A stretch of 62,753 nt of DNA, counting the filler, from Candidatus Woesearchaeota archaeon (GTDB taxonomy: Archaea; Nanobdellota; Nanobdellia; Woesearchaeales; BM511): NCBI GenBank assembly GCA_023266675.1. It is 3 parts of 3 records of this genome, joined end to end, with 100 filler letters (N's around TTAATTAATTAA, not from the genome) between each part and the next. Parts side by side here need not be neighbours in the genome. Positions count along the whole stretch, not along the records: positions 55,373 to 62,753 come from JAHFPP010000062.1; 2 more parts are not named here. One strand, written 5' to 3'. The translations under genes and the position numbers were made by a program. The notes under the pieces were generated by a model, which made no database searches, was not told where the DNA came from, and was given only the letters and a program-made list of their open reading frames with translations. This document shows positions 60,577 through 62,753 of this stretch, one piece after another. Numbering within the stretch: the stretch's first letter is position 1; every line of letters begins with the position of its first letter.

Positions 60577-61269
60577 ATGATAACAGTAGTTCTCGTCGAA
60601 CCTGAAAATGAGGGAAACATTGGCGCGGTTTCGCGCGCAATGGCAAACTTTGACTTAGAAAACCTGGTTATAATCAAGCCTAAGTGCAATCATCTTTCGC
60701 AAGATGCCCGCCGCCGCTCTGTTCACGCGACAAAAATTCTTGAAGATGCAAAAATCGTAAAAAGCTTTGTAACACTAAAAAAGTTTGATTATGTCGTTGG
60801 CACAACATCCCAGATGGGAACAGACTATAATATCACACGCTCACCTCTTCTTCCACACGAGTTTGCAGAGAAGATTCCAAAAAATAGCAGCGTCGCGCTG
60901 GTTCTTGGGCGCGAGTCGCATGGACTCTCAAACAAGGAGCTTGAACTGTGTGACTTTGTTGTTACAATTCCATCATCAAAAAAATATCATTCAATAAATT
61001 TGTCTCACGCGGCAATAATCCTGTTTTATGAATTGTATAAAGTGCATGGTGACAATAAGATAACAAGCCACATTCCGTCGGCCACAAAAAAAGAGAAAGA
61101 AGTGATTATAGGTGCCTTTAGTAGTATTCTTGACAGCATCGAGTTCTCAACAAAGGAAAAAAAGCAGACTCAAAAAATCGTCTGGAAAAAACTATTTAGT
61201 AAAGCAATGCTCACAAAAAGAGAAGCATTCGCAGTGATTGGGCTTTTAAAGAAAATAGCTAAAAAGTAA
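60577..61269 (+). CDS. trmJ: tRNA C32/U32 2'-O-methyltransferase TrmJ (SPOUT)
   Basis: VVLVEP...GNIGAVSRAM.NF, GRE..GLSN.EL..CD, SINLSHA. Confidence 0.92.
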   Translation: MITVVLVEPENEGNIGAVSRAMANFDLENLVIIKPKCNHLSQDARRRSVHATKILEDAKIVKSFVTLKKFDYVVGTTSQMGTDYNITRSPLLPHEFAEKIPKNSSVALVLGRESHGLSNKELELCDFVVTIPSSKKYHSINLSHAAIILFYELYKVHGDNKITSHIPSATKKEKEVIIGAFSSILDSIEFSTKEKKQTQKIVWKKLFSKAMLTKREAFAVIGLLKKIAKK

Positions 61270-61550
61270 GCTGGTGTGCGGACACGTCACCTCTTTTTTG
61301 ATATGCAAAGATCCTGTCACCAATCCTTAACTAAAACTTTGTTGTGAGCCAAAGCTTTAATGCAAAAGCCTCTTCCGCCGTACTAGTCAAAGATGCATCA
61401 AAATACCGTTTCTCACACCGATATTGTGCCGTAATTGACCTTAGCATGGTTAAAGACAGTTGCATGGTCGATGCTTTCACAGGAGTAGATGCAAACAGCG
61501 TATGCCCTACACCCCCCAGCACTCTTTACAAAACCACAAAGATTTACTCA
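61270..61550 (-). ncRNA. Unassigned structured non-coding RNA
   Basis: Long-range pairing with many G-U pairs on the minus strand; BRE/TATA AAAGGTATTTATATA at about 61590-61576. Confidence 0.65.
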
Positions 61551-61671
61551 AGAGCAAACATCTTTTGGTTAAATATATATAAATACCTTTGCATAAAAAA
61601 GTATTTCTCTTCAAGCCACAACTCGTTAGTGTAAGGCAAACTTAATATACAACCAAACCTAAAAACCTGTT

Positions 61672-62211
61672 ATGGACGACATAGTAAAGACTGACATCTT
61701 AAAAGTTCTAAATTCAGCATCTATGATGATAGAGAAAGGTGACACAATGGGGTTAAAGGAGCTTTCAAACCACACAATCCACAACGCATCAATCTTCCAG
61801 GATGAAGACTCAGTAACAATCGCTGTCATAATATATACGCTCGCCAAGATCTTTGAGCGAGAAAACCGCTGCGAGATGTCAATTGTTCCAATAATCAACA
61901 GTGCAAAGAAAAATCTTTTTGAAAACAACCTTGAATCATATAAATTGAACTTGACAAAAATTTACACTCACATAAAAAACCATGATTCAAAAAATAAGCT
62001 TTACATCCAGGAAGTCATACAGCAGGCAGGAGTTAAGAAGAGCTCAAAAATCTATGACCACGGAGTATCTTTAGGACAGGCTGCAAGTATTCTTGGTGTT
62101 TCGCAATGGGAACTTATGGAATATATTGGAAACACGAGCATCACTGACAATTTTGAGCCTGACAACTTAAAAAAACGGCTGTCAACGGCAAGAAAACTTT
62201 TTGGAGGATAA
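61672..62211 (+). CDS. Hypothetical protein with C-terminal UPF0175-like HTH
   Basis: G.SLGQAASILGVSQWEL. Confidence 0.7.
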   Translation: MDDIVKTDILKVLNSASMMIEKGDTMGLKELSNHTIHNASIFQDEDSVTIAVIIYTLAKIFERENRCEMSIVPIINSAKKNLFENNLESYKLNLTKIYTHIKNHDSKNKLYIQEVIQQAGVKKSSKIYDHGVSLGQAASILGVSQWELMEYIGNTSITDNFEPDNLKKRLSTARKLFGG

Positions 62212-62218
62212 ACTTAAT

Positions 62219-62404
62219 ATGGAAAACAAGTCATTTGAAGTCAAATTTGTTCTTGACAAAAACAATAACATTCAGACGCAGATAAGCAACAAGGGAGTTT
62301 CCCCAACAGAAGCTATCGGGCTTCTTGAGATGGTAAAAGACCAGATGATGGATAATCTTCGTAAAGGAAGAAAGAACATGTTTGATATTAAGGGAGACTT
62401 ATGA
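62219..62404 (+). CDS. Small hypothetical protein
   Basis: 61 aa, SD GGAGG upstream; EAIGLLEMVK. Confidence 0.65.
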   Translation: MENKSFEVKFVLDKNNNIQTQISNKGVSPTEAIGLLEMVKDQMMDNLRKGRKNMFDIKGDL

Positions 62405-62485
62405 AATCCGACCTTTTACAAAAAGCTCGACCAAAACACGGCGGGTTGTAAATGCAACCCACCTAATATAAAAAAAGGATAAAAA

Positions 62486-62753
62486 ATGAAATCAATAATT
62501 TTTGACACTGGACCGATAATCAGCCTTGCAACAAACAACCTGCTCTCAGTATTCAAAAAGTTAAAGGAGTCATTTAACGGAGAGTTTTACATAACAACTG
62601 CTGTCAAGAAGGAAGTAATTGAACGCCCGCTTGATTCAAAACGATACAAGTTTGAGGCGCTTCAGGTGTTAAAACAGTATCAGGACGGCGTTTTCAAATT
62701 ATACGACGCAACTCAGCTGAAAGAGAAAACAGAAAAACTGATGTTTCTTGCAA
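62486..62753 (+). CDS. PIN-domain protein, 3'-truncated by the window edge
   Basis: MKSIIFDTGPIISL...YITTAVKKEV. Confidence 0.8.
   Translation, partial: MKSIIFDTGPIISLATNNLLSVFKKLKESFNGEFYITTAVKKEVIERPLDSKRYKFEALQVLKQYQDGVFKLYDATQLKEKTEKLMFLA

Follow-up and report, generated by a model that had tools for sequence, protein, structure and literature searches.

The stretch of DNA analysed here (the window, 62,753 nt) comes from the assembly GCA_023266675.1 of a Candidatus Woesearchaeota archaeon, termed G000 below (1.22 Mb, 83 contigs, 95.9% complete), and joins its contigs C34, C36 and C37 with 186 N between. On the minus strand of C37 lies the gene of a structured RNA, flanked by a convergent gene for a TrmJ-family methyltransferase and a divergent gene for a 179-aa protein (Table 1). 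An earlier note, made from the sequence alone, had described a promoter-driven RNA at 61270..61550 and offered two readings of it, a highly divergent signal recognition particle (SRP) RNA or a new class of non-coding RNA (ncRNA). Sequence, strand and most helices stand as described there; the gene is slightly longer (about 61555-61261), and two inner helices were not upheld. In our best reading this is a separately transcribed, stable, abundant, structured and non-coding RNA, its abundance being read from library contigs, which do not show level. We rate it as a new class of RNA, narrow in its known distribution: it is found in RNA libraries, its core covaries between two genomes and no Rfam family contains it, which supports the second of the two readings.

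Table 1. Features of the RNA gene and its surroundings, in window coordinates (G001, a genome of the same family; X3, X5 and X6, sequencing runs; R1, covariance model of the core)
Feature	Position	Strand	Observations
RNA gene	61261..61555	-	About 295 nt, both ends approximate; placed by library contigs at 61276-61546, TATA spacing and the U5 run
BRE-like purine-rich stretch CAAAGG	61586..61591	-	CAAAAAG at the same place in G001
TATA box TTTATATA	61576..61583	-	Read in the sequence; kept in G001 within AAAGTATTTATAT
5′ stem-loop CUCUU/AAGAG enclosing AAAUC/GGUUU	61522..61554	-	Folds; G001 has UACUCUUUA/UAAAGGGUG enclosing AACUGC/GCAGUU
Invariant 5′ block UUUGUAAAGAGUGCUGGGGGGUGUAGGGCA, including a G run	61503..61532	-	No differences in X3, X5 and X6 contigs; GGGGGGTGT also kept in G001
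Variable region with variable-length hairpin GCAU-CGACC-AUGC	61455..61502	-	Indels, 17-nt insertion, skipping contigs
Conserved 143-nt core: long arm with internal loops, and short hairpin	61325..61467	-	R1 match in G001; covariation
UGUGAG, end loop of the long arm, proposed kissing partner	61412..61417	-	Complementary to 61343-61348
CUCACA, short-hairpin loop, proposed kissing partner	61343..61348	-	12/12 cells pair; 1/6 pairs changed on both sides
U5 run, probable terminator	61261..61265	-	Follows the last helix; shares its positions with the final codons of the trmJ-like convergent gene; the G001 RNA ends in U8
Convergent gene, TrmJ-family methyltransferase	60577..61269	+	TIGR00050, 199.5 bits
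Divergent neighbour, 179-aa protein	61672..62211	+	No other neighbour is conserved with the RNA; G001 has a homologue of 61% identity, likewise placed divergently

Promoter and Ends of the Gene

Both upstream elements that had been reported, a TATA box and a B recognition element (BRE), are present, the latter as a purine-rich stretch that we infer to be a BRE. In G001, which belongs to another genus of the same family, the promoter is nearly identical (TTTTTTA..AAAGTATTTATAT). The promoter is a strong one, of the stable-RNA type, and belongs to the RNA alone. The TATA box lies 21 nt ahead of GCUCUUGAG, a spacing equal to that of the 5S rRNA gene of G000 itself, and the distance from TATA to start also matches the RNase P RNA gene of this genome; by comparison with these two genes, the RNA should start near 61553-61556. 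Archaeal transcription terminates at oligo-U, and the U5 run behind the last helix is probably the terminator. Two open reading frames (ORFs) inside the gene have no Pfam match, and the indels between G000 and G001 (38 nt and others) do not come in threes and keep no reading frame; judged by its sequence, the RNA does not code for protein. Its GC content (0.41-0.44) is just slightly above that of the surroundings.

Presence in RNA Libraries and Variation among Uncultured Relatives

Three RNA runs of three studies (X2, X5 and X6) and the DNA run X3 were compared with the 1201 nt at 60900-62100. One DNA run holds 90% of the words sampled from this interval, and small shares of them occur in several RNA libraries; small shares are also present in runs X4, X7, X8 and X9, from which nothing is concluded here. 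Within the interval, the RNA-library contigs of the three studies are confined to 61276-61546: X2, an RNA library of the study shared with the best DNA holder, gave two contigs of at least 99% identity at 61298-61477, and X5 (sediment) and X6 (freshwater), from the other studies, gave contigs 80-99% alike on 61276-61546. Depth is 0 in all bins of 60900-61268 and 61556-62100 in X2, X5 and X6, leaving the flanking genes uncovered; coverage in the DNA run X3 extends to 61599. Metatranscriptome coverage, proposed earlier as a check, is thus found in the RNA libraries of three studies and on the element only. Two X5 contigs enter sequencing adapter 10 and 17 nt past 61535 and 61532, which would place the 5′ end near 61545-61549 in these relatives.

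The relatives recovered in this way show where the RNA tolerates change. Their contigs have no differences across 61402-61437 and 61486-61546, and blocks of 30-44 nt are invariant among them. In the variable region a 17-nt insertion lies inside the CGACC hairpin loop, some contigs skip 48-54 nt, and G001 carries 38 extra nt. Among the 13 single-base variant places considered outside that region, spanning 61310-61459, four switch between a G-U and a Watson-Crick pair (61320, 61336, 61384 and 61456) and four fall in unpaired parts (61310, 61331, 61401 and 61459), 61401 lying in a strand that is paired by core helix 4 and looped in the G000 fold. With some abundant X5 contigs the likeness is limited to a block of 40-50 nt (window 61428, 61455), after which they continue differently (a fraction of 0.91 of the compared sequence runs on unlike); these may be more distant family members or chimeric contigs in the sediment RNA library.

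Secondary Structure and Covariation

The minimum-free-energy fold of the G000 RNA keeps most of the helices proposed before, namely GCUGG/CCAGC, GUGU/GCAC, GGGCAU/GUGUCC, UCCUGU/ACAGGA, GGUCAA/UUGACU, AUAUCG/CGGUAU and UAAAGCUUUG/CAAAGUUUUA, with pair probabilities of 0.86-0.99. A covariance model (R1) built from the single G000 sequence, and limited to the 143-nt core at 61467-61325, finds a homologue in G001. In the alignment of the two cores, fitted to the model, 93.4% of 91 cells pair, and 12 of the 47 pairs are changed on both sides and still paired, so that the covariation sought earlier is indeed there. Slid controls, in which the 3′ partners were moved by 1-3 columns, pair in 37-50% of cells and hold 0-4 pairs changed on both sides. 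The changes are centred in AUGCAA/UUGCAU (AGCAG/CUGCU in G001), in GUCUUU/AGAGGC and in the end hairpin AUAUCG/CGGUAU (UAUGAAG/CUUCGUA in G001); in the helix formed by AUGCAA/UUGCAU and GUCUUU/AGAGGC, 5 of 12 pairs differ on both sides between the genomes. This covarying helix excludes the two inner helices drawn before, UCUUUAAC/GUUAAGGA and GCGGAAG/CUUUUGC, which G001 cannot form. The argument that G-U pairs fix the strand holds: nine G-U cells of the core would be A-C mismatches on the other strand.

Beyond the core, RNAalifold keeps both 5′ stems, with one pair changed on both sides. Applied to both full RNAs in a plain MAFFT alignment, which is out of structural register, it gave few helices, among them an alternative local pairing in both genomes, of the G run with CUCCU (G000) or CCUCU (G001). 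For the entire G001 RNA the folding energy is -112.1 kcal/mol (z -4.0 relative to 100 mononucleotide shuffles), and the 5′ and 3′ strands of its rod gain -20.8 kcal/mol by pairing, against -3.5 ± 2.7 for shuffled 3′ strands, none of 200 being as good. A search by eye for K-turns, sarcin-ricin motifs, Sm sites and tRNA-like ends found none conserved in both genomes.

At the apex, the end loop of the long arm and the loop of the short hairpin are complementary (Table 1). Their counterparts in G001, CGUGAG and CUCACG, keep all six pairs, one of them changed from U-A to C-G. We treat the possible kissing contact of these two loops as a lead, not a result.

Distribution and Genomic Neighbourhood

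Searched with laxer filters in three same-family genomes, R1 matched over its whole length at G001:C102:4174-4314 (38.9 bits, E 3.2e-7), the sole homologue found in genomes; the RNA there is about 355 nt long, against about 295 nt in G000. In an even sample of 150 other genomes from across the order, the same model has no match. R2, a second model that combines the two cores, recovered G000 alone among 151 genomes of the order and likewise among 151 of the phylum, with no match in G002, G003, G150 or G179. The only match by blastn of the RNA against 60 relatives was 26 nt in G036, which by eye lies in a frame resembling an ABC-type ATPase gene. Exact words of the invariant blocks occur at no locus in genome contigs (24-mer, 21-mer), viral contigs or metagenome contigs of the Joint Genome Institute (JGI) (22-mer). 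An 18-mer gave 16 metagenome loci, and these were set aside as chance hits of a G-rich word, the best of them scoring 10.9 bits against R1 (E 0.5). A gapped pattern of three conserved words is present in G000 and G001, two of the 401 genomes tallied for the order; the 401-genome tallies include genomes flagged unpublished (G245, G184, G209, G134, G123, G337, G303, G370, G374, G114 and G274). The genome sets are samples, and the RNA is to be read as not found in those searched rather than absent. So far, it is known only from a sub-lineage of one family of the Woesearchaeales, which belong to the DPANN archaea, plus uncultured relatives in RNA libraries.

The G001 RNA diverges from a 183-aa ORF, the homologue of the 179-aa neighbour, and in both genomes this gene is followed by the same ORF of 67-73 aa and then by the same next ORF. 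On the other side, downstream of the RNA, G001 has another ORF in place of trmJ, so that no linkage exists between trmJ and the RNA. In 253 of the 401 genomes a homologue of the neighbour protein occurs, nearly always without such an RNA, which shows that the RNA is not bound to this cluster of genes. Upstream of the neighbour gene, G002 and G003 have a spacer of 75 nt at most. Across 29 loci around neighbour-gene homologues, R1 found the G001 copy only. Two weaker candidates, L076 (17.9 bits, E 0.015) and L067 (14.6 bits, E 0.12), were rejected as lacking most of the core or lying more than 1 kb from the neighbour gene, and R2 does not recover G179, the genome of L067.

The three-gene cluster itself (window 61672-62752; L055 3-1264; L058-L061) is kept across the order. 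It encodes the 179-aa protein, with a weak UPF0175-like C-terminus, a protein of about 70 aa and one of about 233 aa starting MKSIIFDTGPIISL, and none of the three has a clear Pfam or NCBIfam family. Source records of the 179-aa homologues name Candidatus Woesearchaeota or Nanoarchaeota; of the JGI records, one is named "Csm2" and another "transcriptional regulator". Elsewhere on C37, one gene carries a Peptidase_M50 domain, and others resemble by eye eIF5A and a small ribosomal protein.

Known RNA Families

Rfam gives no match at gathering score on the whole window. At E ≤ 10 it lists seven rows on G000 (61100-61750; best E 0.86) and one on the G001 homologue (E 9), all of them noise and none for SRP or RNase P RNA; the small nucleolar RNA (snoRNA) rows in this listing lie far below their gathering scores. 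Neither copy, in short, matches a known family, and the listings and abstracts of a literature search hold no description of such an RNA.

Individual candidates fared no better. The conserved RNase P words (P4 and CR-I/CR-V) had been reported as lacking from the RNA. The archaeal RNase P model (RNaseP_arch, RF00373; gathering score 84 bits) has no match in the window, and the canonical RNase P RNA whose presence elsewhere was to be checked lies at G000:C47:763-1083 (150.8 bits). Nor does 5S_rRNA (RF00001) match the window, and a normal 5S is present in all four genomes of the family (at C70:10064-10181 in G000). A box C/D guide RNA was rejected by eye, the UGAUGC of G000 not being kept in G001 and no CUGA being seen, and so was an H/ACA guide RNA, the ACA near the 3′ end of the G000 RNA being CAC in G001. 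As for the template of a diversity-generating retroelement, the 316-nt region has no blastn match in G000 other than itself, and no such reverse-transcriptase gene is among the neighbours.

SRP RNA in G000 and G001

The Archaea_SRP model (RF01857; gathering score 96.5 bits) has no match on the window, on 61100-61750 at E ≤ 10 or on the G001 homologue, and an nhmmer search, with a profile made from the SRP RNAs of 33 relatives and all filters off, finds nothing on the candidate even at E ≤ 100. A regular expression for helix 8, written from relatives' sequences and recall (GUCAGG...GGAA...AGCAGC, with a GNAR-type end loop), matches 32 of the 33 relatives' SRP RNAs and neither of the two new RNAs. 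The 5′ UGUAA, once taken as an SRP-like sign, is AAUAA in G001. Above all, G001 has a canonical SRP RNA at C56:1936-2258 (99.7 bits) besides the new RNA on C102; with both RNAs in one genome and the helix-8 signature absent, the identification as a highly divergent SRP RNA was given up. The words CUCCUGUGAA (G000) and CUCUAUGUAAC (G001), which follow a possible G-run helix, were compared with the SRP Alu domain, in which a UGUNR turn joins helices 3 and 4 and the end loops pair; they lie in a variable region and compete with the rod pairing, and the SRP profile does not match there.

The SRP RNA of G001 appears native from its sequence context: ORFs on its contig are 60-78% identical to G000 proteins, and it holds a 12-mer limited to three family members (G001, G002 and G003; 3/33 sequences). 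It is 323 nt long (L034 1936-2258, minus strand), against the usual 272 or so, some 50 nt being inserted directly ahead of the helix-8 words, and no family member above the cut-off scores lower.

Of 61 genomes (G000 and 60 relatives), 55 match the SRP RNA model at E ≤ 0.01, including all three same-family genomes, and 50 score above the family cut-off. The proposed check for a canonical SRP RNA elsewhere came out differently in the two genomes, present in G001 and not found in G000. The first look over the whole G000 genome gave no Archaea_SRP candidate, the best profile hit there has an E of 3.6, and no SRP RNA lies at the site beside a large protein at which G002 and G003 have theirs. At this syntenic site (G000:C52:11494-11860) a small minus-strand ORF is seen by eye instead. 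SRP54 is present in G000 with a normal M domain (105.5 bits). Since the 23S rRNA is also missing from the assembly and ARAGORN finds only 21 tRNAs, an assembly gap is the simplest explanation for the absent SRP RNA gene. Neither G000 nor five relatives with canonical SRP RNA (G001, G002, G003, G010 and G019) give a match to the Pfam SRP19 model, so SRP19 is uninformative; it may have been lost in the order or have diverged too far to be detected. For annotation this means that the label "SRP RNA" is not to be applied to this RNA in G000.

Interpretation and Alternatives

We consider it highly probable that the RNA represents an undescribed family. The fuller explanation, that of a new-family structured ncRNA acting in trans and most likely serving as a ribonucleoprotein scaffold, seems to us reasonably probable; the scaffold mechanism taken by itself, which is drawn from shape, abundance and conserved loops, is tentative and falls somewhat short of an even chance. 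The RNA would consist of a 5′ stem-loop, a long irregular rod joining the 5′ and 3′ parts and an apical two-arm domain, whose end loops may pair over 6 bp into a compact knob. It would act in trans as the scaffold of a lineage-specific ribonucleoprotein, with the invariant purine-rich internal loops (GGGGGGUGU, CUUUAAC with GRCGGAARAGG, and CAAUUACGGC) as candidate surfaces for binding protein or ligand, and the variable hairpin as a presumed site of tolerated expansion. Alongside the RNA, G001 has a canonical SRP RNA, G000 an RNase P RNA and each of the two genomes a 5S rRNA.

Several observations weigh against this interpretation. The G000 fold is within chance (-87 kcal/mol against -78.1 ± 5.2 for dinucleotide shuffles, z -1.72, 14 of 200 being as good), and so the case rests on the comparison with G001 and on the RNA libraries; the rod-strand test that succeeds in G001 likewise gives z -1.67 in G000, again with 14 of 200 shuffles as good. 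That comparison involves two full sequences only, and the core alignment was fitted to the model structure, which favours pairing. G001 does not retain all of helix 3 (UGCU/AGUA is lost), 4 of the helix's 12 pairs having an unpaired cell; the variant at 61338 breaks a pair of the short hairpin in relatives, and those at 61438, 61440 and 61457 are not checkable against pairing partners. With two sequences the shuffle control of the kissing loops is uninformative, 257 of 500 shuffles reaching the observed value. The library contigs inform on presence in RNA libraries, not on strand, level or true ends, and therefore stand for element-limited presence rather than a mapped transcript. Finally, a spread of 2/401 genomes argues against a core cellular role, and no protein partner, ligand or activity has been identified for the scaffold.

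The two alternatives that derive from SRP RNA have to be judged on the evidence given above. It is very unlikely that we see here the SRP (7S) RNA of the organism in an unrecognisably diverged form, which would bind SRP54 in place of the canonical RNA. Such a replacement would explain why G000 has an SRP54 with a normal M domain and yet no detectable SRP RNA, even at the site used by G002 and G003; size, rod shape and two-arm apex do recall SRP RNA, and CUCCUGUGAA and CUCUAUGUAAC resemble the Alu-domain CUCCUGUAAC of relatives. But these words sit in the most variable part of the RNA, the helix-8 signature of nearly all relatives is in neither copy, canonical SRP RNA is kept in 55/61 genomes, G001 holds both RNAs, its SRP RNA sharing a contig with G000-like ORFs and carrying the family 12-mer, and the G000 assembly misses RNA genes anyway. 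An old SRP RNA duplicate, which would have kept an Alu-like 5′ part (G-run helix, UGUNA turn and next hairpin), lost its S domain and now act on the ribosome without SRP54, we hold to be quite improbable. The RNAalifold pairing of the G run comes just before GUGAAA and AUGUAAC, the context of the G001 G run, GGUGCGGGGGGUGUUUAGGC, resembles GGUCGGGGGGUUAGCC of that genome's own SRP RNA, and the SRP Alu domain also folds by loop-loop pairing of neighbouring hairpins. However, the energy-favoured fold puts those bases in the rod (UCCUGU/ACAGGA at a probability of 0.98), the rod strands of G001 pair far above chance, relatives differ in this region, the kissing loops belong to the apical core rather than the 5′ part, and neither Rfam nor the order-specific SRP profile finds anything significant, the latter even at E ≤ 100.

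Three further explanations dispense with SRP. Large orphan RNAs with a compact fold and invariant stretches have repeatedly proved to be ribozymes or riboswitch-like, and a catalytic or ligand-sensing RNA without a dedicated protein would suit the compact fold, the probable loop-loop tertiary contact and the 30-44-nt invariant stretches, which go beyond what helices alone need. It is nevertheless unlikely: Rfam matches no ribozyme or riboswitch, the contigs bear no sign of a cleavage site or of circular end joints, and the RNA, which has a promoter and a terminator to itself and no gene downstream of it in G000, is not a cis regulator. High abundance and rod shape would equally fit a decoy or sponge that titrates a factor or nucleic acid, for example via its GGUG-containing 3′ strand resembling Shine-Dalgarno, and AGAGGUGA (G000) and UGGGUGG (G001) are conserved at the same place. 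Yet the GGUG words are paired in the predicted folds, no target is identified and the resemblance rests on 4-7 bases, which makes us think a decoy rather improbable. The chance folding energy of G000 and the narrow distribution are what one would expect of a non-functional fold in a long spacer, transcribed by read-through or as noise; this is extremely unlikely given that the RNA libraries of three studies cover the element only, that promoter, terminator and synteny are conserved in another genus, that 12 pairs have changed on both sides and still pair, and that blocks of 30-44 nt stay invariant while the flanks were not recovered at all.

Few large, abundant and highly structured RNAs are known, and nearly all of them serve fundamental functions (rRNA, RNase P, SRP, tmRNA). 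The genomes of DPANN archaea are small and streamlined, and to our knowledge almost nothing is known of their non-coding RNAs. An RNA of about 300 nt that a streamlined archaeon keeps and strongly transcribes, with blocks of 30-44 nt conserved, should have a worthwhile function, and the RNA gives a handle for finding it: sequence, ends, fold and a testable tertiary contact. It also shows that such lineages invent structured RNAs on short evolutionary time scales. Going beyond the trans-acting scaffold, one may imagine the subunit of a new ribonucleoprotein or a ribozyme of this Woesearchaeal lineage, an RNA machine of large size and high expression and of recent origin in genome-reduced DPANN archaea, which in the lineage of G000 might even partly replace SRP RNA; we find this broader idea doubtful.

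Comparison with Known Systems

The proposed apex has counterparts in better known RNAs. The SRP Alu domain folds through loop-loop pairing of two neighbouring hairpins (loops L2 and L1.2), and the D-loop and T-loop of tRNA meet at its elbow; in these, likewise, adjacent hairpins pair by their end loops into a knob at the tip of a helix. The contact suggested here differs in being a 6-bp Watson-Crick kissing helix between loops of 10-12 nt, with one compensatory change, and in lacking a T-loop or Alu consensus. As a whole the RNA recalls archaeal SRP RNA (RF01857) in its size near 300 nt, the ends joined in a long irregular rod, two apical hairpins, here in proposed mutual contact, high abundance, a stable-RNA-type promoter and an oligo-U end; unlike it, the RNA has no helix-8 SRP54-binding signature and no sequence or covariance-model similarity, and the order of the long and the short apical arm is reversed. 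Archaeal RNase P RNA (RF00373) is comparable in size, is also an abundant structured RNA and has its ends paired over a long range, whereas the RNA described here does not match its model. A further parallel is offered by OLE, raiA, ROOL and GOLLD, the orphan large structured ncRNAs of bacteria. Those are bacterial and this one is archaeal, of the DPANN, without an Rfam model match and much narrower in its spread so far; they have in common a complex conserved fold, high expression and restriction to particular lineages.

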